IMG/VR virus record: IMGVR_UViG_3300030107_000800
Location: 14,501-78,500 of that record
Reading direction: 5' to 3' (one strand)
Length of the DNA stretch: 64,000 nucleotides
Source: a virus
The notes below the pieces were generated by a model. The model saw nothing but the letters and a program-made list of their open reading frames with translations. It had not been told where the DNA came from and did not search any database. Position numbers and translations under genes: made by a program. Positions 9,070 through 61,900 of this stretch are shown here, piece by piece (positions within the stretch are counted from its first letter, which is position 1; every line of letters starts with the position of its first letter).

Positions 9070-12000
9070 TTATGTGGGTTCAAACGGGATAATATCCTCT
9101 CCTGCATTAATAGAGTCAGGCCCAGAGAAGAGAGTGCATCCCTCAAAGGTTGTTGCAGTCTTACTTGTGTATTGAATTACAGTACCACCAGATGTAAATA
9201 TGTATCCAGCAGCAGGGAAGTTGTCAGTCATTGCTACAACTATAGGACCACCAATAGTACCAGTAGATTGAGATATTGCAACAGGATTTTGAATAGATCC
9301 ATTTACAATTCTCCAGTACTGGCCAGCAAGTGTCCACGCGGACAATCCTCTCATCTCAAAGTCTTGGATACCCAATGATGGATAATGTATATCCAATTCT
9401 TGTAGTGTTGTACCAGATACATTAGTGAATCCAACATCCCATCCAGAGATATCAAAATGATTCAATGTATTACCAACATTAGTAACAATATAGTCACCAA
9501 TATAGTCTTGTGTTTTTCCAAATACTAAGTTAGTAACATCAACTATTCCACCACCTCTTTGTACAACATCATAATCATCTGTAATATCTACAGATCCTGT
9601 ATGAACAGTACTAGTTGCAATTCCTCTTGTAGGAACTGGATCATTGATGAATGCTTCTTCAACATATTGATCAATAGCACCAGAAGCAGGTGGTGTTAAT
9701 ACAACTTCTGTTTGTGTTGTACCAGGACTTGCAATTGATTGAGTAATAGTGATCTCTGATAGTACATTTGTACTAATTGATACATCAAGTATCAAATCAG
9801 TCGTAGTAGTCTCAGAAGTAGACTCAATCTTAGCAACTCCAGCAGGTGCAACAGATATACGTTCTGGAACTTGACGTAAGAATGTTCCAGCAGCCCAGAA
9901 CTTAGCAGTCGTATCTTCTTGGCCTCTTTGAACCATATAGAAACGATCAGTCAACTTACGATAGTAACGAACTACCTCATCACCAATTAATAGATATCCA
10001 CTATTAGAGAATTTCCATGTATCTGGAATGTATATTACTTCATCAGCAATATCAGTATCAACGTTAGTATAAGCACCAACCTGATAGTAATTAATATTAT
10101 CTAATGAAGTATTATCAATATCAACAGTGAAGGAAGAAGTTATTTGCTTACTTACTGTTTGAATAGAGTTGAGAGATACAATATCCTGAATTGCAACATT
10201 AGCAATAGATGGTTGAGCACCACTACCTGCTGCACCACCAGACTCAATAACTAGAGGATCAGGTTCAATGAAAACAATTTGACTATTATCTGGTTGTTCA
10301 GTTCCAGCTGGCATATCAAATCCAGATTGTCCTTCTGCAATATTATCGGTATCAATCTGAATCTCTGCTTCAATATCAGGAGTAACTGATTTAGGACTCT
10401 CAAATGCTGTACTTGTGAAAGTAGAAATATTCTGAACCTGAGTACCAAGGATAGTAATATGTGCAGAAGATGTCTGAGTTTGAGAAACATCAACTTTAGT
10501 AACACCAATCCTTTGTGTAATAACAATACCAATATCTCTTTCAGCTAAGATGTCATATCTTCTTGCAACCACTACCTGTGGTGCTTCTGTATAACCAGAT
10601 CCACCATCAAGAAGATCAACACTAATAACTTGTCCTTTACTTACTAGAGCAGTTGCTCTAGCACCACCACCATTACCATTCTTAGGAATGAAATGTAGTA
10701 TGGGTGGTGTTTCATACTGATATGCAGTTGGTTGAGTTAAAGGATCATAACTACGTTGATTCCATTCTAACTTAGTAACAGATCCATTCTCAATAGTGGC
10801 CACTACTGAGAGTCCTTCACCTCTTGTAGTACCATTATATCTCTCAACTTCGACTTGACCAAAGTGTGATGTAGAAACTGGTTCACCAGCTCTCTGTTCT
10901 TTACTGGTTGTACTTCCAGGAAGTTTCTTAATTGCTCTGAATCCTTCCTCACCTTCAATTCTAATCTTATCTAAGTTAGAAATACCTATAAATGGTTGTC
11001 TATAATTCTTACCTAATAAAGTACCAGACCATATAGAGTTCAAATCTGATAGAACTGCTCTACCATCAACATCTGCTTCATATACTACACCTGAACCAGA
11101 TGAAGCAAGAGTAACAGATGTATTAATGTTATACTTTCCACCTACAGCAAATACAACAGGTAATGTTTGATCAATTTCTGCTTTTGGTCCTGTTGCTGTA
11201 AACCTGACCATATCATTAAGTCTAAAGAAATTAGAAGCAATACCAATAATTTTCTTTATTCCACCTACCTCTTGGTAAGCATGTACTGGTAATCCAATTG
11301 AATCTCCCATCCAACGGAATCTAAGAAGATCATCTGCTCCAGCAGTAGTTTCTAATGTTACAACACCTTTAGCATAGTAACTATCAGGGTTGAAATCATA
11401 TATGTTTAATACTTGACCGACATTTCTACCATATAGGTATCTCATGTCAATTTTTGTTGCACTATTGATAGGAACATTAAAGTATATGTTAGGCCCAGCA
11501 ACAGTATAACTATATCCCTCTCTTTGTAATATTCCATCAACAAATACATAGAGGAATTCTTTCTGTTCAATTGTTTGAACAGTCATATCCTCAACATCTA
11601 AGATAAGGAAAGGACCAGACTTAACATTATCAACTAAGTTATAGTCAATAGTTAAACGTTTATAGTTAGCAACACCAATACCACTAACTTTCTCAATAGC
11701 AGTTACTTCACCTAAAGTTTTTGCTCCAAGATCCTGATCACATATAGGAGCAACATCAAATATTATTTGGTTTGGTATTACAGATCTATTGATATAATAA
11801 GCATCAGCACCAGGATAAGTTTCAGTATACTTAGGTCTCTGTAATACTGCGTTAATAGTAAGGAATAGATCTTCATCTACTTCAGTATCTACTGCTGTAC
11901 TATCATCCCAATATAATTCAAATATCTTATTCTCTCCATCAATAAAGTCTGGAAGAGATCTAGTAGTAGAAACTTCATTAATTAAAGTATTAACATTAGC

Positions 12001-15000
12001 ATATAAAGAATCAACAGCAGATATAACATTGTCACATTCTTGTGCTGTTAATTGAGAATCAGCAATGATATTATAGTTACTATATGTTAACTTAGTAGTC
12101 CAATTACCAGACTTATTAATATTATCTTTTACAACCTCTATGATACCTGGCCCTTTAACAATAATTTCCTTAAAGGACTCAATCATTGTATCTACAGAAG
12201 ATATTACTTCAACACATGCTGGATTATTGGTATCAAATGCAATACTACCATCTGTTACAGGTGCAATAGCAGTATAAGTTCCTGTTGGAAGATTATTCCT
12301 TACAGTAAGAGTAATTTTATCTTTTAATGTATCCCATGCTTCAATAGCAGCAAGTCTTTCATCAGAAGTTCTGTTAAGACTTGTTAACTCTTGTCCACCA
12401 GGATATGTGCTAACTGTCCAATAACGTCTTGCATAATCAACAATCTTTTCATTACCACCAAATTTTAAATGATAGGTAATAGCATCTATCAAAAGACCAA
12501 TATCTCTAGAACATTTTGCTTTATCACCTGTTTGAAGACTAGTGTAAGTAGCATAAATGTATTCACTGATCTCTTCTTGAAGATATGCTTTATTAGAAGT
12601 AATTAGATTTGATGCATCTACATATTGACCATTATTAACAGCACTGAGAGTAAATGTTGCTATCTCTCCTCCTGTTGTAGCAGGTGCTACTGCAAATGTT
12701 TGTCCTTGTGGAACTTGTAATGTTTGTCCTTGTGGAACCTGAACTGTATTAGTTCCAGCAGTACCTGACTGACTACCAGATAATTGACTAATTCCAGCAG
12801 CAACACCAGTACCAGAAGTTAATAATGCATTGTTAGATAATGTTATCTTAGTTGATGTATCAATTGATACAATCTTAGTATTTGCAGGGAATGCTCTACC
12901 AGCACTGATATACATTCCAACAGCAAGATTATTAGTATCTCCAACTGTTACTTCTGCTGATCCTATTGCATAATCTACACTAATTTGATAATCCCAATTT
13001 CTAATAGCAAGACCTACTAAATTAGTAGCATATCTAAAGATATCAAGAGATTCAGTTTTATTAGATGTAATGTAATCATAGTCACTGCCTTGATTAAAGA
13101 GATTTACATAATCATAAGTTTTAACATTTCCACCAAATCTCAAATCATGTTCATAACCATCTATAATATATCCAATGTCTCTTTGATAATCATCTAACTT
13201 TGTACTCCAATCAAGTGAAGCATACTTAGACTTACCATAACCTACTGCTTCTGCAACTATAAATTCTCTATTCCTTTCAACCTGATTAGCAGCATCTAAC
13301 CATCTACCACCACGTTCAAATATATTTCTTATCTTCTTAAGATATTTTGTATTATACTGATTATCTACAAAGTAGAAAGTTCTACCATAGAAAGTAACTC
13401 CATTATATGCAGATCCTGCTTTTGTACCAGGACCAAGTGGAGGTTGTGCAAATACTATATTATCACCAGATACTGTGTATGCTTTTTCTGGTTCTTGAAG
13501 AACACCATCTAATGTAACAATTAGACTCTTAGCATTAACTGGTGTAAATGGAGTACCATTTTGATCTAATACTTGGAATGACTTTGTGCCAATTAGTTGA
13601 CCGTCATTATTGTATGTTCCATCAAATGCTCCATTAAGAGTAAATGTAAATGCACGAGTATTATTAAAGTTAAATTCAGAATTAGAAGCAGAACCAGATC
13701 CCTTACGAATTCTCTGACTTTCTACCTTCTGAGTTGTTACTGTTACTATTCTCTTAGTACTTTCAACTGTTATCTTATTCTTTTCTGGATCCCAAAGTTG
13801 AACAATAGTGAAATGAGCATCTTTTGGTTGTGATACAGGCATTGGTACTGCTGCATCACTTTCAATATCAACTTGTCCAAATAACTTAAATCCAGCAGGG
13901 TGTGTAGTAGACTTAATTAAGTCTCTCCACTGTTCTATTGAAGTCTTAGACTTAACAACATATGAATAATCCTGATAGAAATTACTATCAATAAGTTTCT
14001 GATTAGAAACACCTAATTTACCTTTATCAGACTTATAGTATCCTAGATTATCATAAAAACTTGTTATAGATTTATCAAAAGTAGTTACGAATACTGAAGT
14101 AATAGTTCCAGTGGCCTTAGATGTTATTCCTTCTATAGAATTGTTCTGTCTAAAGATACCAGTTATATTCTCTACTTTAAGAAGATTAGATCTCCATTCT
14201 GAAACTACTGCTCTTGCAACTTCATTTCCACCAATCTTCTGAATTAATGTTTCTCCTTTCTTAAAGGTTCCATTAAAGTTCTTAAGAACAAAAATACTCT
14301 TAGATGTAAACTTAGATGCTACAGTTTTATCTAAATGGAATGCTCCACCATTCTTAGTAATAGAAACACTCTGAGGAACACCAATAGATGAACTATTAAC
14401 ATAAGCATCTAAATCAGATTCTACTATTTCAATCTCAGGAGCAAAAGTATATCCTACACCAGGATAATCTATAGTAATAGAGAATATAGAACCATCTCTA
14501 ACTACAACATTAAATGTAGCATCTACACCATCACCATTAGTAATTACTATTTTAGGATTGATGTAATTAGATCCTTTATCACTAACATTAACACCTGTAA
14601 TAGTATTAGTAGTTGTATCAAATAATACAGTTGCTTTTGCTTTAAATTCTGAATTAGGATCACATCCTTCTATAATAGGAATTTTTTTATAATTAAGTCC
14701 TAGATTTATAATTTTAAATGAATCAATCTCACCAATAGCAAATTGGCCAGTTGTAGTATATGTTATTGTTCCTGACCCGTCCCAGAGAGGAGGATCGCCA
14801 ACCAAATCATATACAAAGCGATTGCTAGTAACATAGTTTACCTTCCTGACTCCTTGTAATGGGTCATCTACAATTTTTAAATATTTTCCTTCTGAATTTA
14901 CAATACCATTCTTGTCAAAGTAATAGTAATTTGCAAAATCAGTTCCTATCTTCTTATCGTAATTATTTGTTGCTAACCTAGATCCAAATCCAAACTTAAC

Positions 15001-18000
15001 ATCTGTATATGCTCCAAAGTTACCAGGAAGAACTGGAGAAGCAATCTTCTCAACAGTAATTAGATTATAACTTTTACTTGGACTAATATCAAAGTAAGTC
15101 CCAACGAGACTAGAATGAGACGTATCAAATCTATACTTGTAATACTCTTGTATATCAATATTGATGTTTGGTACATATGTACTATCATCTTCTGAGAATT
15201 CAAATTTGTATTCTACTGGTTCTATAGAAGATATTGATACTGTTCTTCTAGGAAGACTAAAATCAAAGAAAGTTGAATTAATAGTTACATCTTGAGCATT
15301 TGATTTCTCAATAGCATAATCAAATATAATACCTACTTGTTGAGTAGTAGGATCATATGACTGAATATATCCAGTACCTGCACCAGTAAAGATTTGATAG
15401 TTACTAGGGAAATTATATTGTGGTTTATAAAGTATTACTTCTTGAGTATTGAAATGATCAGCATCAACTGTACCTTCTTGGCCTCTATCAACATTCAATG
15501 AATCAGTTGTTATAGAAACAACCTTTAATACTTCATCACCAACTTTTACTAAATCATTCTTGCAGAACCCAGTGACATCCTTGATTTTCAGAGATGTCTG
15601 TCCAGCAGCAAATCCTACATGATCAACATATATTGTTAATCTCTGACTACTTAATGATCCACCAGATCTTACAAGACTCTCATCTGCAACACTTAAATAA
15701 TCTCCTTTTCTATAATCAGATCCACTATCTTGAATTGTAACATTTGATACAATACCAGCATTAGAGACTGTAATACTAGCAGTAGCACCAGTACCACTAC
15801 CACCAGTTAAAGGAACATTATTATAAGTGTTAGCAGTATAATCTGCACCACCATTTAATATTTGAAATCTTCCAATTCCAGTATCATCAATAGTACTCTT
15901 ATTGGATGGTGCTTTAAGAACTATATTCTGATAAAGACGTTTTCTTACATACCATGTCTTAAGTTTTGTAGCATCATCTGGAATAATATCAACAGTTACT
16001 TCATCACCAATACCTAGGCCATGACTAGATGCTGTCTCTATAAGAGCAACACTTTGATTAACAATAAATGGTTCTAAATTATCACTTAAAGAAGTTAAAG
16101 TAATAATTCTAGATCCTGATGTATTAAAAAGATTAGAAGATTGTAAGAAATAGGTATCATCAACAATCCATGTTCCTGTAAGAACTTTAATCTTTAATGT
16201 ATTTTGCTGAGTAGTACCTTCTAAAATTTCAGCAGTAGCAATAGGTGCATTTACACCATCAGTTAGACTTAGAATAGCACCTTCTGTATAAGAACTGTCT
16301 TGATCAATTATTAAAGAGAAGGTCTTAATATCAGCAGAGAATGTTCCTGTATTATCAAACGTTCCATTAACATTCTTAAGAACTATAACATTATCGCTTG
16401 CAACATTTCCTACTATTTCACCATAAGCACTTGAAGATGGTTGTCTTAATGTATCATTAGCAAACAAATATGCAGTCTGAATTGTTGTTAATTTAACAAC
16501 CTTATTTTCCTTAGATTGTAGATAACTAACATCTTTACCTTTAACAGAGGATATTATAGATTCTGCTTCTGATCCTTCTGTTCCTCTATTATCGAAATAA
16601 ACTTTTGAATTGACTGAGAAGTTAGCAGATGATCTATCTACAGAGATAGAATCTACTGTTCCAGATTTAACTTCTGATATTGTAGCAATAACTCCTTCAC
16701 CATTTCTAGGCATACCAGCAGTATAAAGTCTCTTAGCATCTTTAGGAATATCATCCTGAGTGATATTAGAGTTGTAATTACTATCTACTGGTAATGAATA
16801 GAAGTTCTCACCTATGATATATGGATATTGCGGTATTTGATTGCTATCAATAGTAAGGAAATAAGCATAAGTTCCTTCTGGAAAGTCTGGGGTAATACAA
16901 AATCTTCCATTGTTTTGATCTAGAGTTCCACTTTTATGATTGTAAACAAAATCATTAGTGAATGATCCTAGAGGCCATTGTCCCTCATCAGGTCCAGCAG
17001 TACGTTGACCAACTATAGAATAACTAGAAGCCATCCTAATAATAGATGATGTTGCATCTAGTGGGTCTTCATATCCAAATGCACCATATATGGGGTTACC
17101 ATCATAAGCAAAACCTATGATAGGTGAATGTGTCTTAGTTGCTGGTTCAGTACCTGCACCATTTAAGTTGTCATTTAAGGCCACCCTAAGTGATTTGGGG
17201 TTACCTACATGAGCATATCCATAATCAAAAACATTATTGAAGTTTTGGAAAACATAACCATTATCAGTATCTAAGGAAAGTTTAGTAAACCTATTCTTAT
17301 TCCACTCTTTCAATAAAGGAATACCAGTAGCACCTTCACCAACAGGTATAATATCTACAACAACTGTATTTTGATTATAGAAATTACCCTCATCAATCTT
17401 TTCAAAATCTGTTATCTTACCATCTGTAAGAAGAGCTTTGTATTCAGCGAACCTTCCTCTACCAGCATTATCTCTAATTCTAACAGTTGGTGGAGAAGAA
17501 TAGTATTCACCAGCATTATCAATAACAAGACTGGTTACTTTAGCACCAGTAACGATAGCACGAACTTCTGCTCTTCTACCAGAGGTAATTAATATCTCTG
17601 GTGTGGTTGGGAATGTATCAGTTGTGTCTACAATAATACTTTCAACTACATTTCCAGAAAGGACTGCTCTTGCCTTATCTCTAACACCATCTACAAGAAC
17701 ATATGGTGGACTAGCATATCCCCTTCCTTGAGTGTTAACTTTAATTTCTTCTAGTTTACCGTAACGTATGCTTTCTTCATCCTTGAAACCGTAGGCCAGG
17801 ACACCGTTTAGAAGGACTCCAATATCACGTTTTGGAGTTGGGTAAACTTCTGTTGTTCTAGTTGCTTGTTTCCTAATAATACGAAGCAACTTCTGATCTT
17901 GTACTGGTTCACTTATAGTAGGACCATCTAATATCTTATATGATGGAAAACCAGAACTTGAGACATAATAATATTGCTCATCTTCAAATAATGCGGATAC

Positions 18001-46917: not shown

Positions 46918-49900
46918 TTATAACTCCATTAGCCACCATCCGCGTAGTGCAGGTGGTATTGTTCTTGAATTTGCAGATCCCTCAATGTCAACCGTACCAG
47001 CAAATACTAGTCCGAATGATGCATTGCGTGTCTGAATAACCAATTCACCTGAATCCCATGCTGTTGCTAGAGACTGACCATTTCCTGCATCTAACTTAGA
47101 TCCAGTTGAATCACCCTGAATAGCAGTGGCAATACCACTAATCTTCTTCGCTCTAATGATTAGACTTGTGTTATATGTTAAGTTTCCACTTAATTCAACG
47201 AATCTAATCATATCACCTGTTTGTGGATTATCTGGTAGATATAGAACTATGTTACTTCCAGAAGATGAGTTAACAAGATAGTTATTATTAACCTGTAGTG
47301 GATTATCTATCTGCTGTCCTACACCAGTAGCAGTATCGAATGCGACATATGTATGTCTTCTACCACCATTTCCTGTCCAGTATTTCTCAATACCAAATGA
47401 ATCAATAGCGTTGTTCTGATAGATTCTAAAGTCCTTAGCACCTTCAGTACCACCAACTCCAGCAGATCCAAGGTTATCAATGTGGAACATTGTCTTGGAT
47501 GCAGTCTCAGTCTCGTAGACCTTACCTGCTTGATAGTACTCTTCACCTAAGAATACATTACCTTCTCTATTAGTAACTTTAAATGTTGTTACATCAGAGC
47601 AGAGACCAAATGCCTGACAGTTCTCATAGTTGATCTTAAGATCACCACCAAGTTGAGCTCCACCATGTAATGTTAGTCCAGAAGTTGATGTCTTCGCATC
47701 AGCAAGTGATCCGTCTCCAGAGTGGCCATCGTCATTAGCGATAGACATAACCAGAGTCTGACCATCAGAACCATACATTCTGAGGTTACCACTGTATATC
47801 TCAACGTCATCGTGAACAGTTAGTTTACCACCACCATATAGATCAACTAAAGGAGTACCAATAGTATTTGGATTTCTAATTTGCTTAGGAGTCTTAACAG
47901 CGAAGCTAATATCATTAGAACCATCAACACTATCAGGTATGAACCACTCAGTTCCAATTCTGACGTATGTTATATAATCAAGTTTAGGAGCAATTAGATC
48001 AGCATCACGTAATGTAATCTCAAGTCTGATATCACTTGTGTTAGGTGTTCTAGCCTTAAGTGCAGTTGCTCTATCACCCTGTGTTGCAGGTACATCATGT
48101 AATAATGTAGTAGTTCTATCATACTTGTCTAACTTAACAACATTAGCACCTATCGAGAATGCTTGTGCTGCTGTTCCTTCTAATCCTCTACCTCCAGATG
48201 GATACTGAGCATTAGTAGCTGTTGGAAGTATTAGTTCTCCACCACCACCTGTGTAAGGATCATCAGTAATCTGAATAACCTCGATTGCAGCACCAGCACC
48301 ACTTACATAGATTGCAACCAAGTCACCTTTCTGGAATGCAGTTAGGTTACCTTGAATCTCAATGTTAGATGTGGCAGTTACAATATTGTCCGCAGTAGTA
48401 GATGAAGGACCACCTGATATAGTAGACTGAGCATTATGTCTATAAACATATACTACATCATTATCTTTACTGTATCCAGCAGGAGATGAACCGAACTGTT
48501 CAGAAAGCATGAATACTGTTCCATGCTGATTACCAACATCTGTATTACCTGTGCAAGTATCAACCTTGAATATATCAACAGTCTGATTATTAGTAATCTT
48601 AAGTTTTCTGTTGGTATCTGCATCAATGTATGGTGTTGTGCATGTTCCTGTTAGGTTCAATGAACCACCAATATTTGCATCACCACCAGTTACTAATGTA
48701 CCATCAGTAGAATCAACAGAGAATACTGACTCTTCTTGTGCAGTATCACAACCATTCTTAATATAGAAACTCTTAGCTACCTGTGATAGGAGAGTTTCAA
48801 CCTTGAATAGTTCACCTTGATCATCAACACCATCAGCAGGGACAGTAGTATCTTCACGATCAATGATTACATAATCACCAAGATCTATATCTCCACCAAA
48901 CTGTGATAGATATACATCTTCTGATACTCCACCAGAATCAATTGCACTAGTAATCCATGTAGCATCATACTGAACATTACACTTATAGATTGGAGTTGTA
49001 TCAGGATGATCTGATCTTGTTGTTGTCCATGTACCAAATGGTAGTCTCTCAACTACAATATAGAATGGAGCAGTACTAATCCTTGGTAGTGAAACGATCT
49101 TAACAAATTCAGGATGTAATGTACCACCTGAATCATCTGTATCAATCAATAGAATATCATTCTCATTGAAATACTGATTACCACCAGCATCTTCTGGCTT
49201 ATTCTTAATAGGTAGATAGTATTGATTACCAGTTAGAGCAGGTAAAGTCTGAGGTTCAATTACTGGTACTCCACCAACATTAGGAATCTCTTGCTGGAAT
49301 GTTGCTCCACCCCATGCACCACTACCAGATGTATCAACTTGGTTGTAAGTATCAATCAGAGTATTGTTTGAAGTCACTCTTAGAACATCAACCAAATCAA
49401 CGTTGCTGTTGAATAGATTGTTACCAAGTACTCCACTAGCATGAGCAAATGCAGTTGATCCTGCCTGTGCTCTCTTAGCACTGAATGAGTAAGAAGCAAA
49501 TCCACCGCATAGAGTAACATCAGCATTGAATCTAGCAGTAGCATCAACAATCAGGTTATTTCTAATTGTTGTAGATCCACCTTGACCAGCAATCTTAATT
49601 TCAGAAGCATTAGTTGCAAAGTCAAGTATAGATGTGGCCGAGTTACCAGAGAAGAATTCTACCTTCTGGGAAGTAGAACTTAATTTAACGATACTACCAG
49701 CACCAGATCTTCTAGATCCTAGTTCTGCATCACCATCTATCTTAAGAACTTTAGTCTTAATTCTAGTAGCAGATAATGATTCGTTATTATCATATGCACC
49801 ACCAATATCAACTAGTGATATTGTAAGAGCACCATCTGAAGCACGGTTGTCTGGTGTAGCACCTAATCTTATGTTACTATGAAGTGAACTACGTCCGATA

Positions 49901-52900
49901 TTGATAAACTGATCTGCTTCAGTTGTATCACCAATAGCAATTGTAGTTGCATTCTGACCAATATTAAGTGTTCCAGTAAATCCTGCTGAATTAACAAGAT
50001 TAAATCCACCTGTTGTGATCGTTGTTGTTATGTCAGCAGTATTAGCACCACCTCCACCATTAACTTCTACATCTTGTAAGAAGATAGCATTATCAGTGAA
50101 CTTGGAAGTACCACCAACATAGAATGTACTATCAAGTGATGCATTATCAACATTAATACCAATACGATTATCAACAGTATTAACTCTGAATAGTGCAGAA
50201 TCTGTAGGAGCAGCACTATCACCACCAACTAAGAATGCAGATGTACTACCAGTTTCAGTCTTAACTGTTCCTGTCTCAGTTAGATAAGAATTAATTGTCT
50301 TACCACTGATGAATGTAGTACCTACAACATCTAAGTTAGCACGAGGTTCTGTTTCAGCAGATACAAATCCCTTCTGGTATGCACTATGTGCAGAACGTGC
50401 AATAGTGTTAATACCAAGTTTGTAATCACCAATAGTGTCAGTTTCTGTTCTTAATGCTTCTGAACCTAGTACGCCAACTTCTTTGAATGAAGAGTTAGAG
50501 AACTCAACAGTTGGATTTGGTTGGCCACCTGGGACATTAGCAATAATATCTCCATTCCAGTTAAGTGTCTCATTTGCTAATGTTATACCTTCAGCAACGA
50601 AGTGAACATAGTTATTAGTACCTGAGAATGCATCTCCATTAGGTGAAGCAACTTGGAATGGTATGGAATTAAATCCAGCATTATGATAGAAATCATTAAT
50701 TCTAATCTGAGATCCAGATGTAATACCAAGATCATCATTAGTAATATCAAGTCCTGTGTTAGATGACTTGAATGTTAACTTAACTAGACTTCCAGAATTA
50801 ATAAACTCAATAGTGAATATACTTGTATCAGCAATTGGTTCATAGTAGTTTGCATATATCCATCCAAGTGAACCAGTTCTTCCTACTTCCTTACCTTTGA
50901 GTAAAACATCACCTGGTCTTGGTAAGACATTACCATACATGGTGTATTGTTCACTAGCAAGTCTAGTTCCACCAGGGTTGCCAACCAAATCACTGTTGTT
51001 TGGTGTCATATTAGATGGAAGAGAACCAGTACCACCAGTATGTGTCTGGAACATGTACTCTTGACCATTACCTCTGGCATTAAATCCAAAGATAGCAGCA
51101 TTAACACGGTTCTTACTGATCTGAATATCACCCTTAGTTGGTGGAGTGAATGCAGTTCTACTTAATGACTCATCTTGTTCTAGTTGTGTTACAGGATCAA
51201 CAGATGATACATTAGAACGAACAATAACAGCATGACGTTCCTGTGTTAGATCATTATCCTGTACAGATACAATTAGAGGAGATTCAAATGTATTAGGTAG
51301 TGTTCCTTCTCCACCAACGACTGTAATATTCTGGTTGAATGTTACAGGGGTGTCAAAGGTAGTAACTAGACTTCCAATTACATCATCCTTATCTCCATCA
51401 TCTTGTAATGTAGCAGCATCTATAAATGTTTCTTCACCTGTGATAGCATTGATTCTTCTATTACCAATGTACAAGTCACCTTGTGAGTTAATACCAGTGT
51501 AGAATACAATACCACCATCTTGCTTCTTAGACTGAGCATAGAAGTCTTCTTCTGGTGTTAGAACTACTTCCTGTCTAGCTGGTAGACCAGTTGAGTAGTT
51601 ACCTGGACCAAAACCAAGGTATTCAAATGTGTGGTTACCTGCTCTTGCGATAGATGGTCGTCTAAGTTCAACATAGTATCTCTGATCTGAGAGAACTGTG
51701 CTGTTACCAGCGATAGGAATTAATCTATCTTCTGATCCAGAGGTTGCATTACCAAGTTGTGCCTGAATCTTATTAGAACCAGTATATGTGTTCTCAATGA
51801 AAGCAGGTTGTTTAATTAGATCCTCAACACCTTCTCTTGTTACAGAGTTCTTATAGTCGTTAACTGTAACTAAACCATGAGTATAGTTATCAGCAGCAGA
51901 GAACGCTTGAGGTGGATCAATTAAATTAGCATATAGATTTTTCTCTTCGTTTGTTGTACCTGAGTTCTTAAACCAGAGAGGATCGTTTCTGTAGTTTAGA
52001 GGATATAGTTTGCTAACTGGCTGAGAGAACTTGAATCTCTGGAAGTTTCCACCAGCACCAGCACCAGTTGGGAATGGTGACATGTTACCACGTAAGCAAG
52101 TTAGATAGTAAACACCATCTTGCTGACCTGCGATACGTTTCTGTAATGTCTCATAACCAAAGATGTAGAATGTATCATCAATGATACCAGCATCAGTAAC
52201 AGACTCAACATAGTATTGAACACCAGCACTGTCAGTTACAGTATCACCAGGAGTAATAGTGTAAACATTTGCACCATCTTGCTTATAGTAATACTCAGGA
52301 TATCCCTTAGCGATCAAGGTCTTAAGTGGTAATGACTTACCAAAGTCCTGATCCTCTACCATATCAGCGAATACAGATCCTTGAGTGAATCTAGTTTGAG
52401 TGAATTCTGAGAACTCTAATTTTCCGCCGCGTAAATTTTTCAGAATTAGGTAATGGTCACTTCCAACTGAGTAGTAGCCATGTATATTACCAAGTCCAGA
52501 TGAATTACCAGTCCATTCAATTTGGTTAGCAGTAATACTCTGTGTCTTACTGGTTATAAAGTCTCCACCTTGAGGAGCAGTGATCTTAACTGTTGTAAAC
52601 TTATCGTTTCTTAATCCAGGATAGTTAACAATGTCAACTGCATGGTCATAAACAGTTAGTTCAAGATAATTGATAGAATTATCTAATTGATCTGCTACAT
52701 AACGAGCACCCTGAATTGTGGCCTGAATACCACTGGTTGTACGAATAAATGCACGGTAATCAATACCAGCACCAGTTAGATCCTTTCTATATGGATCATA
52801 TGCAAGATCTTTGTTTAAGTTATTGGATGTAAAGTCTGTATCAGTGTATCCAATATATTCACCTGCTTGTCTTGGGTTCTCGAACCTAGCACCAAATTGG

Positions 52901-55900
52901 TTACCACTTACAGGTTTCAATAAGATCTTCTGTGGAATTATCTTACGAGTATCGTCAGTTCTTGTCTTGATAACAAATCCATTGATAGGATCTCTTGCGT
53001 TCTCAAGATACTTAGGAATAACATAACGTAACTTGTATGTTCTTTCATCTGCCTCACGAACATCCTTAAGACGCTCATACCACATATCAGTGGTCTTAGG
53101 TCTATCAGCATAATCATTCTGATGAATTCTCCAGAATATATTATCACTGCTTGTATGCTCATCCTTAGTCTGAACATACCACTTACCAGTTGTAGTTACA
53201 TTATCAGTGAATCCAGGTTCAAACTGGAATGGACTTCTACGCTTGTTAGCAAATACATTAAATGATAATGTTTGTCCAGACTGGAATGTTATTGGATTTG
53301 CTCCAGTAATAGCATCAGCATGTGTTTCATGGATGGTAAATACCTTAGCATTTTGGTAACGAGCATAGAACTCTGTCTTACCATTAAGTCTACCAGTAGC
53401 AAGATCTGCAACTGCTGAATTATTACCACTAACATATGTTGTAGCAACTAAAGGTAAGTCACCACCATCAATTCCTCTAAAGAATACTCTATGAGGAGTA
53501 GTAGATGCAGATGGCTTATCAAAGATATTTGAAATATCAGTTTCAATACCAGCATTAACTGCATTAGTTAACTCACACTTATATGTGTGAAGATCGTACT
53601 TATCATCAAGAACAAACTGATAGATATCAATCTCAACATCAGGATCAATAGCATCAGTTTCAGATGCATAGATGTAGATACCAGCAGCAGCATTTTCTTT
53701 TGATGTTGCAAGCATCAACTTGGTTTGATCACTACCATTGAAGAATGTAGTACCATTATAATTTTCTGGTACTGTAACTCTACCTGGAGCAATTACATAG
53801 TAGATTTGGTTAGTAGAGAATCCATTAGGTAATCTAACAAGTCTCTTATCAACCTCAACATACTTCTGTGTGACTGTATCGAAACGGGGTCTTGGAACCA
53901 ATCTTACGGGAGTTCCAGTCTCGAAGTCGTGAGCATTAGATGAACCAGTACCAGTTGTATCAATAGTGAATACAGTTGCTCTGGAAGCAAGTAATGCAGT
54001 ATTAACTGTCTGTTCTTGACGAGTAACTGATCCAACACCACTGTTAATAATTGTAGTACATACTCCTATCAATGTGTCGATAGCAGCAGCTGTACTTGCA
54101 CACTGTAAAGATCCAGGAGCAGTTGTTGTATCCTGAGTGATAGATGTATCTGTTTGAGGTAATGTATCAGCCCATGCACCTTTAGTGAATGCAAAGAATA
54201 GATTAGTTGTGCTACTTGTTTGTAAAGTATTGACTGTGTTACCAGTAATTAATCTAGAATTGATAACACCAAGTTCAATCTTAGTATTATCAACAATTCT
54301 CTTAACATATGTTCCTTCTGGTATGTTAGTATAAATTGGTGTTGCACCAGGTTGTAATGCACCATTGACATAAGGTGATACACCAGTCTCATCATACTCA
54401 GTAACACTCATACCAATGATGATACCTCTTGTATCACCAACATCAACTATAGCTGTCTGATCAGTAGAGCAATTGAATACAAGAACATCAAAGTTCCTCA
54501 TAGCAGCAGTTGCTACTGATCCAACATAGTTGTAAGCATCAATAGTTTCTGCTTTCTCAGCATCAATAAAGTCTAGGTTATTACCAACGAAGTAAGATTC
54601 ACCAGCCTGAACACTATTAATGTTACCACCAAGTCTTAAGTCATTAACAACAGCATCTGTGATGAATGCAATATCACGGAAGCACTTAGATGACTCACTG
54701 TTAAGAGTAAAGTCTCCTTTATTAACTGTAGGTAGGCCACTGATATTACCAGCAGTAATAGAATCTGTTATGATGTCATATAATGTTTCTATTGTACCAC
54801 GAACGTTAGCACAATCCCACTCACCACTGCTTAATGATGGTAGAGTGTCTAATGTACCTGACTTCAATGCATCTCCAACAATACCAATCAAGGTATCGAC
54901 AGTAGCAAGAACATCAGAACAATTACCAAAGGCATATGTACTTGGATGTGTTATCGTTGCTGCTCTTGGATAAGCGTGCTTAGTAGCATTATTATCTGTA
55001 GCACATGTGAAGATTAATGACTCAGTTCCTAACTTAACACTCTCACCTACTGTTAGTGAGTGAGAACCAATAGTTAGTACCAATTCACCTGTTGTTGGAT
55101 TGTAATCAGCAGCAGTAGGTGTATGCTCTACATTTGTGGTAGTTCCAACGTTAATCCAAATCTTACCAGTCTGTCTCCAAACTCCATTACTTGTTGCAGA
55201 TACGAATGTATGAGCATACTGAGCATTAGGACCACCTTTACCAATGAATACATCAAATGAATTTTGTGTTACATTAGAGATAGGCAACCACTCATTGTAG
55301 AATGGATCAGATGTTCTTGGATATGTCTTATTAACAGTATTACCATCCTTCAAGCATGTGAATGTTAAAGAATTATCTGCAAATTTAATAGAATCATTTG
55401 TCTTCTCAATTCCATTAGCAGTTGCAGATACAAATGTATGTACTGAAGAGTTAGTAGATGGAATACCTAATAGAACATTAACTTCAATTGTATTAGCAGT
55501 TACGTTAGTAACAGATAACCATCTTCCACTTACAGGATCAGTAGCACGAGGATATGACTTAACATTACCTGTTGGATTAGCAATACCAACGTTAACTGTA
55601 ATAGTTGTAGCAGTTACAGCAGTGATGGCAATGTTTGTACCAGATACAGGGTCAGTTGATCTTGGATATGAATGATTAGTTGCATGATTGTCAGCATCAC
55701 AAGTAAATGTAATACCACCGTCTGCAATCTGAATTGTATTAGCAGTTGTAAGACTGTGAGTACCAAGAGTGATCTGCATATCACCACTGACAGGATTGTA
55801 TGTTGTACCAGCCTGTGCTGTGAAGTTAGATGCACCAGATGAGATAGCATCAGCAACACCACTTACAAATGTATGAGTACCAGTAGCAGCACTACACTCA

Positions 55901-58900
55901 AATGTTAATGAGTTATCTGCAATTCTTATCCTATCACCATTTCTATAGGTGTGATTAGGAATTGTAAGAACTAACTGACCAGCAGCAGCATCATAAGAAC
56001 CATTAGTTACAGTATCATATGTTGTAGCATTGAATCCATGATTTGCCATTCCAACGGTCAAGACACCAGTTGCAGGATCATATGCTGTACCAGCTCCTGC
56101 TGTATGGAATGTCTTGTCTACAGCATCAATATCAACTGCTGTGTTGTATATTGGATCTGTTGATCTTGGATAAGACTTAACAGTCTCGTTATTGTCCATT
56201 CCACAAGAGAAGAACAATGAATCATTAGCAATCTTCACACCATCTGTCATCATTAGATTGTGTGTTCCAATATCTAATATTAATCTTCCAAGTCCAGCAT
56301 CATAAGTTGCGTCTGAAATATCATACTTAACTTGTTCCGTTGTACCAACATCAACTGTGATTGTTGTTCCAGTAACAGCAGTAATTGTAACTGCCTCACC
56401 AGCAATAGGATCATTACCAGGACGAGGATATGTCTTGTTATCAGTATTGCCATCCATCTCACAAGAGAATGTCAATGAGTTGTCAGCAATCTTAATGCTT
56501 GTACCAACTGCTAATGAGTGAGCACCAATAGTTAATACTAGATCACCTAAAGCAGGATTATAAGTTGCACTACTTACATTAAACTGAACGATAGGTGATG
56601 AACCTACATTAACTGTAAATGTATCTGTAGTTACACTTGTAATTGCTAGTGATTGTCCAGAAGCAGGGTCTGTTGAACGTGGATATACATGCTGACTAAC
56701 ATCATTATCCATATCACAACTGAAGGTTAATGCACCATCAGCAATGGTAATAGTATTAGCAGTTGATAATCCATGGCCTACACTTGTGAATGAAATATCA
56801 CCTGAAGCAGGATCATATGCAGCACCCGTTACTGTGTATTGAGTACCCGTATTTGCTGTGATTCCATTATTAACAGCAGATATGAATGTATGTGTATAGT
56901 TACCACCAGATGATACAGCACCAGTTGTAGCAGATACAAATGTGTGAGCATATGCACCACCAGTGATCAATGCACCTTTAGCAGCATGTGAGAATGTATG
57001 AGGATAGTTACCACCTGAAACTACTGCACCTGTAGATGCACTCAAGAATGTATGAACTGACTTATCAGGAGAAGGTCCAACATTAAGAGTAATTGAAGTT
57101 GCATCAACAGCACTAACTGGCAATGCAGTATCATATGCTGGATCAGATGTTGATGAAATTACTCTACCAACTCCACCTGCACCAACATTAACTGTGAATG
57201 TATCAGTAGTAACTCCAGATACTTCTATTTCCTTACCAGAAACAGGATCTGTTGTTCTAGGATATGAATGTTGTGAGAAGTTATCATCCTTATCACATGT
57301 GAATGTCAATGAATTGTTAGTGATGATTATCTTATCACCATTACTTAATCCATGAGATGCAGCAGTGATAACTAAATCACCAGACTGTGAAGTATAAGTT
57401 GCATTAGTAGCAGTTAATGATCCACCAGAAACTATTGTTATTCCACTAGCAGTAGCACTAACAAATGTGTGGTTGTAATGATCTGTTACTGCATCATAAC
57501 CAGCAGCAGTTCTAACGATACCAGAAAGATTACCAACACCACCAGTTGTAGTTCCAAGTGACTGTATAAGGATACCAATTAATGTATCAACATCAGCAAC
57601 AACTGAACCGCAATGTGGTAAGTTAGCAGGTAGATCCCAATCTTCTACGATTGTTAGATCCTTAGTCTGAGTTAGTGGGTTGTTACCATTAACACTAACT
57701 GTTAGGTTGTTAAGAACTTCTATTGCAATGCTGCTAACATACTCATAAACACGAACGATCTCATCTCTTCTATCGTCTTCAATAACTGTTGTGTAGTTAA
57801 CTCCACCAAACTCATTAGTAATGAATCCTTCAGCAACATCATATGTCTTACTGTTACCACCGAACTTAACATCCCATGTAACTTCTCTTAAGACATCATA
57901 GATATCATCTAAACAATCCTGCATTGTGTTGCCAGTAGAAGGAGTATATGAAGGGAAATCTACCTTCATTCTTTCATATGCTTCTCTAGCAATAAATTCT
58001 TTATTTGTACGAATTAGATCATGTGCATCAGCGTGCATGTTAGAGACTATTGCTGGTTCTCCAACCTGATCTAATGTGATTGTTGTATCCTTAACATAGT
58101 ATAGGTTGTTAAGAGAACGATTCATCAAGTCAGCAGCACGTTTGAATGCTGTGATTACTGGATCAACTTCTCCTTGAACACCATTACCTAGTAATGTGTT
58201 ACCATCGAAGTACTCCTTAGTAGCAGCGATAGTAAATTCATTACCACCGAACCACAAGTCTTGTGCAACAGCATCAACGAAGATACCCATGTCTCTACGA
58301 CACTTAGCTTCACCTGTTAAGAATGTTCCTGCGTTCTCTACTGGCATACCAGCAAGAGTACCATTAGTAATGGCATCTGTTACGATAGTACCAAGAGTTA
58401 CGATTGCTGACTGAACATCAGAACATAAAGCATCATTGTACTGATTAGATGTATTACCAGCAAATGTAACTGCACTAGCAGATGCACTTACAAATGTATG
58501 AACTTCATTTGTAAACTTAGCTCTACCAACATTAACTGTGATAGTATTAGCATCAGCAGCAGTAATTTCAATATATGCTCCGTTTACAGGGTCACTGGAA
58601 CGAGGATAACTCTGTTGTCCTACACTTCCTTGATAGTTACAACTGAATGTAAGAGATCCAGTAGCAATATTAACTCTATTACCAACACTTAATCCATGAG
58701 CATTCATGGTTAGAACTAAGTCACCTGTAGCAGGATCATAAGTTGCAGTAGAAGGAGTAAACTGTTGCTGAGTCTGGCCATAAGGTGATCCAGGAGCATT
58801 ATCAGCAGTGATAGTTAAATCCTTATCATACATTGACTGTGTAACTGCCTTTCTCATTTGAGTTACAGCAGCATTAAGAGCAGTTGTATATTGAGTCTGC

Positions 58901-61900
58901 TCTCCAACAAAACCATTAAGGATAGGTGTTGTTGTATCAGAGAAGTATTGTTGTGCAAATGCTCTTGTATGCTTGTTACCAGTGGTATACAAGTCAGTAG
59001 CAACAGCATCTATAAAGATACCAATGTCTCTGAAACACTTACTCTCATGTACTCCACCAGATCCATTGTTGATCTCTTTTGGTAGAGAGTTAAGATTACC
59101 AGCAGTAATAATATCTGTTACAATAGTACCTAGAGTATCAATAGTTGCCTGTACATCAGCACAGTTATACTGAGTATTAATTGAGTTATCTGTATTAGCA
59201 CCAAAGATAACTGAATCAGTAGCAGCTCTTACAAATGTATGAGTTGCTTGTGGAAGATGCTTAATTGCATTATTTGAAGCAGTTACAAATGTATGAGTTG
59301 TATTTGGTCTGAACTCAACAGCATCAGTAGATGCAGAAACCCAAGTATGTGCTTCGTTGTTACTACCAGTACCAACACCAACGTTCATTGTGATCCAACC
59401 ATCTTGTCTGTCTACACCATTTGAAGTAGCAGATACAAATGTATGATTGAATTGACCGAATGATCCTGCTGCACCAACGTTAACATCGAAGGAGTTAGCA
59501 GTTACATTACTTACAGCATACCATCTACCACTAGCAGCATCGCTAGTACGAGGATAAGTATGTGTGCTTGAATTATTATCCTTATCACATGTGAATGTCA
59601 AAGAATTATCAGCGATCTTAACGTAATCGCCATTTGAGAATCCATGTGTAGGAATTGTAAGAGTTAGTGCTCCAGTTGCAGCTGTGTATGCTGCGTTAGT
59701 TACTGTATGCTGAGTAGCACCAACATTAGTAATTAGAATTGACTTACCAGCATAAGGGTCAGTGCCTGGTCTTGGATATGATCCATTACCACCGCCACCA
59801 AATCCACAACTGAAGGTCAATGAATTATCTTTAAGAACAATACTTCTACCAACACCGATACCATGCTGACCAATATTTAATGTTAAGATACCAGTTGAAG
59901 GTTCGTATGTACCATCAGTAGGAGTGAAGTCTCTATTACTACCAGCAGCATTAATATTAACTGTGATAGTACCATTAGTATAATCTACTGCTGTAATAGT
60001 AGCAGACTTACCTGAATACTCATCAATACCAGCACGAGGATATGTCTTGTTAGTACTATTACCATCCATAGCACAGGTAAAGGTCAAAGAGTCATTCTCA
60101 ATGACAATTCCTTCACCAACTGCTAGGCCATGAGTACCGATTGTTAGTACAAGATCACCTGTAGCAGGATCATAAGTAGCATTACTTGGTGTCCACTGTT
60201 GATCAGCACCAGCACCACCAATATTTACAGTGATTGTGTCAGCTGTTATAGTGGTTATCTGAACATACTTCTCATAGTTTGAACTTGCAGATGTAGGATA
60301 TGTCTTCTGACTTGCATTACCATCCATTCCACATGTGAATGTTAATCCATTCTCAGCAATGTTAATGCAATCACCTGTAGTTAATCCATGACCTGCGATA
60401 GTTAATACAAGATCGCCTGAAGTTGGGTTATATGATGCATCTGTTGGTGTGAATCTCTTTTCATCATTCTCACCATAATCAGATCCAGGTGCCTTATCTA
60501 CAATAGTTAAATCTTTAACGAAGAGTTGGTTAGTAACCGCCTTCTTCATTTCTTCTTTTGCTTGAGCAAAAGCAGCATTTGCTTCTGCCTCTTCACCCTC
60601 AACACCATTTGTTATAGGTGTAGTAGCATTCTGGAAGTACTCAGCAGCAAATCTATATGTGTACTCATTACCTTTAATGAATAAGTCAAGAGCAAGAGAC
60701 TCAACGAAGATCTCAAGGTCTCTACGACACTTAACTTCACCTAACTCACTAACATAACTGGTTTCTGCTGGAAGACCAGACAAGTTACCAGCACTAATAA
60801 CATCAGTTACAATAGTTGTAAGAGTTGCGATTGCATTCCTTACATCAGCACAAGCTGCTGGATCTGTATTAGGAACATTAGCACCACCAGCAATATAATC
60901 TGCTGGACCTGAAGTTAGGGTAAGATCCTGAACTGCTAATTGGTTACTAGCAGCAAGTTGCATCTGATCCCTTGCTTGGTTGAATGCATAATTTGCTTCT
61001 GTCTCTTCACCAGATAGTGAGTTACCGAAACTAGATGCAAACTTACGTGCATATCTGTTACCACCCATGAATACATCAAGAGCAATAGCATCTATGAATA
61101 TACCTGTGTCTCTTCTGCACTTATCTTCATACTGAACATGATTAGGATATGCAGTAAGAGTATTGGCCCATACTGTATTGATAATAGAAGCTTTGTTCTG
61201 TAATATTAAACGATAACCATCTGCAAATCTGGAAGATGGAGTAGTTGCAGCATCTCCAGTATGATAGAAATCTGGATGTTGTACTGCAATATTACCAAGA
61301 CCACGATCTACGATCCAGTCTTTGTTTTGCATAATCAAACGATATGCATCAGCAAATCTTGATCCATCATCTGTTTCTGCATCGTTAGGGAAGTAGAAAT
61401 CAGGATGATCCATAGTAATTTGTGCTATGGCCTTATCCTTAATCTCCTTACTGTTACGACGGATGAATCTAAATGCATCACCAAATCGTGATTGTGAATT
61501 AGTTTGTGTATCTCCAGGACTATAGTAATCTGGATGATATACTGCTACCTCAGCAACAGCACCATCAAGAATATAATCTTTGTTTGCTATGATTAAGTTT
61601 CTAGCATCCTTATTACGACTAGCAGAACTTGTAATTCTATCTGCGTAGATAGTAACTGAGTTAGTTGCTGCACTTACAAATGTATGTGCATATGCACCAC
61701 CAGAAATTACAGCACCAGCAGTAGCAGATACGAATGTATGTGCATACTGATCTCCAACAGAAGCAGCAGCACCAACATTAATTGTTATAGTACCATCTTG
61801 TTTCTTAATACCATTGGATACTGCTGATACAAATGTATGAGCAGATACATCAGAAGAAACACCAATGTTAACTTCAAATGTATTTGTTGATACGTTAGAA

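Follow-up and report, generated by a model that had tools for sequence, protein, structure and literature searches.

Diverged phycobiliprotein domains, one nested within the other, in a gp7-like baseplate protein of a marine cyanobacterial virus

In solved structures of phycobiliproteins (PBPs), a long distance separates the two classical bilin-attachment sites, referred to here as the 84 and 155 sites. Phycocyanin carries its bilins at alpha-Cys84, beta-Cys82 and beta-Cys153, and the bilin on Cys153 is hydrogen-bonded through its pyrrole nitrogens by beta-Asp39, a conserved residue (PMC6614406). The phage genes for bilin synthesis and for the T-type lyase (HO, PcyA, PebS and CpeT) occur only in myocyanophages, and T-type lyases serve beta-Cys153 (PMC10452541). 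The cyanomyoviruses that carry bilin genes include phages of Prochlorococcus, a host that has no phycobilisome (PMC2984593). The phages P-HM1, P-HM2 and S-PM2 adsorb only in the light, independently of photosynthesis (PMC6628666; PMC2984593). This behavior is unexplained, with no light-sensitive component known; receptors and/or tail fibres have been suggested as its cause (PMC6628666). Here we describe two helical modules with homology to PBPs in a gp7-like baseplate wedge protein encoded by the virus record IMGVR_UViG_3300030107_000800 of IMG/VR. We analyzed a stretch of 64,000 nucleotides (positions 14,501 to 78,500 of that record), hereafter the window. All large open reading frames (ORFs) of the window are on the minus strand, and all coordinates below are window positions on that strand. 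According to the ORF list and its translation, the gp7-like ORF (P0001, 9070..19380) encodes 3436 amino acids (aa), and the two modules occupy its residues 2024-2467.

Both gp7 modules are true, diverged PBP domains, descended from the family of the host light-harvesting proteins. We draw this conclusion because the Pfam score, the PDB and hhalign matches, the fold searches and a reverse search of genomes agree; taking homology, fold and nesting together, we consider it nearly certain. The Pfam family PF00502 scored 27.4 bits on a 567-aa segment of gp7 (cut-off 22.2), with the match spread over two stretches, and 20.5 bits on the whole 3436-aa protein, slightly under the cut-off. When PDB sequences were searched (E<10), 24 out of 24 matches were phycocyanin alpha, the best having an E-value of 0.014 with the single sequence and 2.2e-4 with a profile of 16 sequences. 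A 55-sequence profile of module 2 also matched phycocyanin alpha (E 7.8e-4). The T4 gp7 chain was absent from the PDB sequence-search matches of the gp7 segment and of module 2, and a search of the ESM Atlas gave no usable match. We built alignments of CpcA and CpcB from the cpcB-cpcA loci of cyanobacterial genomes and compared them with the modules using hhalign in local mode with a low mact; global mode gave meaningless end-to-end alignments. Module 2 aligned with the 71 CpcA sequences with an E-value of 4e-8 (probability 95%), which places Cys2290 on Cys84.

The first-pass annotation of this DNA had described two more copies of a module in gp7 that resembled the bilin-site region of phycocyanin alpha, and these matches bear it out. 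The motifs, closing helices and codon positions that it quoted are correct, and all of them fall in the one 3436-aa ORF. It had also stated that nothing in the window matches phycocyanin alpha more closely than a motif in gp7. By exact identity this is so, since nine out of nine residues (KAKCSRDIG) of module 2 are shared with a Galdieria CpcA. By Pfam it is not: within the phage record, PF00502 scores highest (17.9 bits) on a variant module of a giant fibre ORF (window ~57856-58041), to which we return below.

The reverse search used the module 2 profile on genomes. In four whole cyanobacterial genomes the profile found one place each, an open frame of PBP size, and in one of the four this place was on the contig with the cpcBA locus. 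Across the cyanobacterial phylum, 74 of 301 genomes were matched, and every match except one was within open frames of 163-223 aa. We checked the five best frames. They scored ~300 bits with the CpcA model and adjoin a CpcB-like ORF, that is, they are cpcA. One match was rejected as a false positive (locus L229 of genome G156, a 1893-aa frame, E 3.5e-5): it is a helical repeat region in a sensor with GAF and histidine-kinase domains and does not contain the motif. This case illustrates that helical profiles can mislead at the E 3.5e-5 level.

We predicted structures with AlphaFold2 without templates, both for a 466-aa segment (16 sequences) and for module 2 alone (55 sequences). The model of the 466-aa segment (mb5d439e0f6f1; mean predicted local distance difference test score, pLDDT, 67.9) has helices at 10-112, a beta-rich region at 116-232, helices at 238-395 and a last helix at 432-453. 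In Foldseek, all of its top matches were PBPs. VIA-align superposed its residues 1..454 on residues 23..177 of PBP beta chains with a Z-score of 15.8, a root-mean-square deviation of 2.3 A and 139-144 aligned residues. So few aligned residues over such a span mean that the outer module is discontinuous: an insert and module 2 separate its helices A to G from its own helix H. VIA-align assigns residues 2015-2126 and 2446-2468 to a single PBP domain that module 2 interrupts. The models thus bear out the nesting, with module 2 and the beta-rich insert both lying in the loop that joins helices G and H of module 1. The first-pass annotation had read the closing helices as following in nested order and had suggested predicting the structure of this segment; the prediction places module 2 inside the module 1 domain and gives both modules the PBP fold (Z 15.8 and 14.2).

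The model of module 2 alone (maf7c2e8da519) has six helices, with a pLDDT of 78.7 and a predicted template modelling score (pTM) of 0.81. All of its top Foldseek matches were PBPs. A structural search of 48,161 representative chains, independent of Foldseek, ranked phycoerythrin beta first (Z 14.2, 148 aa, chain residues 28-184). Next came ApcE and far-red allophycocyanin (12.9) and other phycobilisome chains, with sensor globins (~11) after them. Both modelled modules contain the globin-like core (helices A, B, E, F', F, G and H).

The features of the nested segment can be placed as follows. Helices A to G of module 1 (aa 2024-2126, 13003..13311; AlphaFold helices 10-112) lack a Cys84-type cysteine. 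They are followed by the beta-rich insert in the G-H loop (aa 2127-2245, 12646..13002; model strands 116-232), which has low pLDDT at model residues 173-236 and includes a low-complexity stretch that varies by indels; query residues ~177-222, within the insert, are missing from many gp7 homologues. This low-complexity stretch (window ~12700-12840, gp7 aa ~2190-2236) contains a short tandem duplication, QVPQGQT x2. Module 2 is a contiguous domain with the PBP fold and both site signatures (aa 2246-2410, 12151..12645), on the evidence of the model, hhalign and the fold searches. The last feature is helix H of module 1, its closing helix (aa 2446-2467, 11980..12045; model helix 432-453).

Both modules aligned collinearly with CpcB in hhalign, from residue 31-33 to residue 168-171. 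In this register, CpcB Asp39 corresponds to Asp2029 in module 1 (13294..13296) and to Asp2255 in module 2 (12616..12618), the latter within a shared D-A-x-N-x-I-T-S-N stretch. CpcB Cys82, the 84 site, corresponds to Tyr2065 in module 1 and to Cys2290 in module 2. CpcB Cys153, the 155 site, corresponds to Cys2449 in module 1 (ECDNV, 12034-12036), at the start of the closing helix, and to Cys2389 in module 2 (ACVEV, 12214..12216), at the N-terminus of helix H. Provided that helix H is ungapped, the VIA alignments end at points that support the same register: model residue 454 falls on chain residue 172 or 177, which puts Cys2449 at beta 153 or 158, and residue 163 of the module 2 model falls on chain residue 184, which puts Cys2389 at Cys165 of phycoerythrin beta. 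At the 84 site, the residue-for-residue alignment with CpcA equates K2289-C2290-S-R2292-D2293 (12502..12516) with the bilin site motif Lys83-Cys84-x-Arg86-Asp87, in which Asp87 and Arg86 have roles matching that of beta-Asp39. The motif of module 2 reads KAKCSRDIG...KFGGN, with the Cys2290 codon at nt 12511-12513, and that of module 1 reads DDYQRDIG...RFGGN, with the Tyr2065 codon at nt 13186-13188; Tyr2065 occupies the Cys84 position in the alignments to both CpcB and CpcA.

To assess the constraint on these residues, we used a set of 117 gp7 homologues that are 49-98% identical over the segment. K2289, C2290, R2292, D2293, G2295, D2255, C2389, D2029, Y2065 and C2449 are each invariant in 117 out of 117 sequences, while the Arg that follows Tyr2065 is retained in 57 of the 117. 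Module 2 therefore keeps the residue signatures of both classical bilin sites: the Cys84-type cysteine with Arg86 and Asp87, and the Cys153/155-type cysteine at the start of helix H with Asp39. In module 1 the first signature is gone and only the second persists, by hhalign and VIA alike. The idea, raised in the first-pass annotation, that the Cys-less copy is a natural negative control holds for the Cys84-type site, where Tyr2065 is found and the Arg is relaxed. It does not hold for the second site, where Cys2449 and Asp2029 are kept.

The module family extends well beyond gp7. The same module recurs 7-8 times in a giant fibre ORF of 5643 aa (46918-63849), so the proposal that baseplate and giant fibre share a module is upheld, and more than 1000 other representative proteins of virion type carry it too. 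We searched 1.84 billion representative proteins exhaustively with the profile. This gave 1182 proteins at E<=0.001 and, at the stricter threshold of E<=1e-30, 375; a single protein can hold as many as 35 modules. Some arrangements differ from those in gp7. The variant module that gave the best PF00502 match in the record reads D-C-L-D-D, with the Cys kept and Asp in place of Arg. At aa 1000/1041, 1563/1605, 1809/1850 and 3013/3056 of the giant ORF, K-C-x-R-D helices have a closing-type helix (C-x-D-V) ~40 aa upstream. In these four copies the C-x-D-V helix takes the place of the D-A-x-x-L-I-x-x-N helix, and a nested, a permuted or a truncated topology are all possible. Elsewhere, the giant cyanophage proteins P0154 (5984 aa), P0155 (6382 aa), P0054, P0079, P0113 and P0121 are made up of 21-35 PBP-like modules in tandem, repeating every ~110-160 aa, and the N-terminus of P0079 resembles a beta-helix domain by eye.

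We examined constraint across this family in the best 149 representative proteins, which are <50% identical and contain 1615 modules, 1554 of which were aligned. The Cys84-type cysteine is present in 1492 of these 1554 copies (96%). C-x-R-D was found in 1446 of the 1492 Cys-bearing modules, compared with 26 of the 62 Cys-less ones (Fisher p 1.6e-33, a value that overstates independence because the copies are related). In 32 of the 62 Cys-less copies, the Cys is replaced by an aromatic residue, F, Y or W. In the tandem giants almost every cysteine is of the Cys84 type (24 out of 27 in P0079), Asp39 is not retained and no Cys-bearing closing helix was found.

The second signature was compared by counts per protein, given that our hidden Markov model (HMM) of the closing helix recovered only Cys-bearing helices. 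In 154 proteins outside the gp7 orthologues, the number of Asp39 modules correlates with the number of Cys-bearing closing helices (rho 0.59), and Asp39 modules are present in 31 of the 33 proteins that have such helices. Judged by these sequence patterns, the two signatures behave as separate units, each kept or lost whole. This is what two ligand sites predict, unlike a pure packing role.

A tblastn search of 50,697 phage records matched 74 records with the gp7 segment and 171 with a tandem-module protein. All of them (74/74 and 171/171) are Synechococcus or Prochlorococcus phages or marine single-cell viruses. The gp7 of P-HM2 and a fibre protein of S-PM2 are both among the matches to the gp7 segment. 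Shuffling has spread the module family among giant fibre proteins and baseplate proteins, and of the sequenced phages only cyanophages were found to have it.

Judging by its sequence and position, gp7 is a reasonable label for the 3436-aa ORF, because of its PHROG matches, its gp6-like and gp8-like neighbors and the annotation of its P-HM2 homologue as gp7. Its match to phrog_4406 (virion structural protein) runs from end to end, and it also matches the baseplate wedge families phrog_2885, 708, 17744 and 438. Its neighbors are a gp6-like ORF (phrog_219) and a gp8-like ORF (phrog_438), both baseplate wedge subunits. The ORF thus combines the position of a T4-type gp7, between the gp6 and gp8 wedge genes, with similarity to wedge subunits. 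The Pfam family Baseplate_wedge scored 22.5 on it, under the cut-off of 27. A YHYH domain (PF14240) lies inside gp7 at aa 693-850 (window 16831-17304, E 2.7e-30) and is also precomputed in most of the listed gp7 homologues.

What might these modules do? One explanation is that during infection they would be loaded with bilin made by host or phage enzymes (ho1, pebS, pcyA). The bilin would be thioether-linked to Cys2290 and probably also to Cys2389 and Cys2449, and the 153-type sites might be served by a T-type lyase, either that of the host or the phage's own CpeT. CpeT is encoded in a 96%-complete relative and in a second, partial relative. The pigment would stabilise the fold, and it may render the baseplate and fibres light-responsive, and this would explain why T4-like cyanophages adsorb in a light-dependent way. 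We grade the parts of this explanation separately. Going by the residue signatures, covalent bilin at the module cysteines would be an evenly balanced prospect. A light-sensing role of the modules is rather doubtful. The full picture also seems unlikely to us as a whole: T4-like cyanophage virions would be covalently pigmented, with bilins on gp7 at Cys2290, Cys2389 and Cys2449 and dozens more on the fibres; the phage's own ho1, pebS, pcyA and cpeT would serve at least in part for loading; and the resulting photoreceptor would gate the conformation of baseplate or fibres, such that adsorption occurs only in the light.

Several results weigh against pigmented PBP modules. Strong sequence similarity to PBPs is confined to helices B and E/F', and the Foldseek E-values are modest (0.003-0.1). 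The CpcB alignments that place the second site are weak alone (E 0.069 for module 1 and 0.011 for module 2), and the modules have no partner subunit, which in PBPs completes the pocket of the 155 site. By structural alignment, the X helix of the X-Y hairpin that forms the alpha-beta monomer is missing from both modules, since the alignments begin at chain residue 23-30 in each case. Module 2 starts right after a beta strand, and module 1 has just a short helix before its helix A. Because of the missing X helix, and because the modules are embedded in a baseplate protein, assembly of the gp7 modules into (alpha-beta)3 discs or phycobilisome rods is unlikely. The covariation counts are not phylogenetically independent. 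We did not find cpeT in the window's own record, which is 40% complete, so that its absence is uninformative. Finally, our literature searches found no paper describing PBP domains or bilin in virion proteins, and to our knowledge purified cyanomyovirions have not been reported to be coloured or fluorescent.

Some of these points fit a different explanation, in which the PBP-derived globin fold has been multiplied as a rigid helical spacer, an apo scaffold whose Cys, Arg and Asp serve packing and salt bridges without any pigment. We regard this as the main rival, plausible though less likely than not. The fold does not need the Cys84-type cysteine, as module 1 does without it and aromatic residues replace it in 32 of the 62 Cys-less copies; there is neither an X helix nor a partner subunit; similarity is weak outside helices B and E; and reports of pigmented virions were not found in the literature searches. 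However, packing leaves unexplained why 96% of 1554 copies, from proteins <50% identical, have Cys and not Ala, Ser or Val at this position. It also does not explain the joint loss of Arg and Asp with the Cys, the tracking of the helix-H Cys by Asp39, or the finding of the family in phages of bilin-making hosts only.

The cysteines might instead have another chemistry, either disulfides between subunits or modules that toughen the virion, or the binding of a metal or other ligand. Virions are extracellular and oxidised, and the gp7 segment has three invariant cysteines, of which Cys2389 and Cys2449 are a candidate pair. We nevertheless consider this distinctly improbable. The tandem arrays have one cysteine per module and almost none elsewhere, and where the number per trimeric layer is odd, at least one would be left unpaired. 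The K-C-x-R-D context, moreover, is the bilin motif itself. A disulfide between the 84-type and 155-type Cys of the same module is ruled out: the tandem giants have nearly only 84-type cysteines and therefore no partner within the module, and the distance between the two sites in solved PBPs prevents such a bond. That the resemblance to PBPs is due to chance or convergence of amphipathic helices, with no common descent, is barely credible: although the single-sequence PDB E-value is just 0.014 and unrelated bundles can give helical models high Z-scores, the Pfam score is above its cut-off, hhalign gives 4e-8, PBPs are exclusively at the top of both fold searches, cpcA is the near-sole cyanobacterial match, six helices follow one another collinearly and the two attachment sites are in register.

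With a family of virion PBP domains that keeps both attachment sites, there is now a concrete substrate and a photoreceptor candidate. Both the light-dependent adsorption of cyanophages and the presence of bilin genes in cyanomyoviruses, including those of Prochlorococcus, become directly testable. The gp7 protein is the most tractable case, with a two-site module beside a natural variant that has only the T-type site, within a 466-aa segment. Even without pigment, the capture of a host antenna fold and its multiplication up to 35-fold as virion material is an unusual transfer of a domain from host to virus.

The closest described systems are the PBP beta subunits (CpcB, CpeB and the cryptophyte beta chains). 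The phage modules have the same globin-type fold from helix Y/A through H, collinear and with Z-scores of 14-16, and the same two-site pattern, in which Cys82/84 goes with R-D, and the Cys153/155/165 that opens helix H goes with Asp39. They differ in being 12-20% identical to these chains and in lacking the X helix, hence the alpha-beta pairing hairpin, and they are nested in a 3436-aa baseplate protein, where the G-H loop holds a beta domain and a whole second module. The best relative by sequence is CpcA, with which they share the motif K-x-K-C-x-R-D-I-G followed by Y-x-L-x-x-G-G. Unlike the phage modules, with their Cys at the start of helix H and Asp39, CpcA has no second site, only Cys84 (PMC6614406).

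The bilin-binding domain of the core-membrane linker ApcE (Z 12.9) is also a PBP domain with a loop insertion inside a large multidomain polypeptide. ApcE attaches its bilin without a lyase. It is, however, a component of the host phycobilisome, with one PBP domain followed by linker repeats, whereas the phage carrier is a virion protein in which the domain is multiplied and nested. Globin-coupled sensors (HemAT, DosC and the Bordetella GCS) have the same superfold (Z 9-12) and are a precedent for a globin as signal input, but they score lower than the PBPs, show no sequence signal and bind haem through a proximal His, not bilin through a Cys. As a baseplate protein, the cyanophage ORF resembles T4 gp7 in its place between gp6-like and gp8-like wedge genes and in its matches to baseplate wedge PHROGs. 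T4 gp7 is ~1030 aa long, and the cyanophage ORF is more than three times longer.

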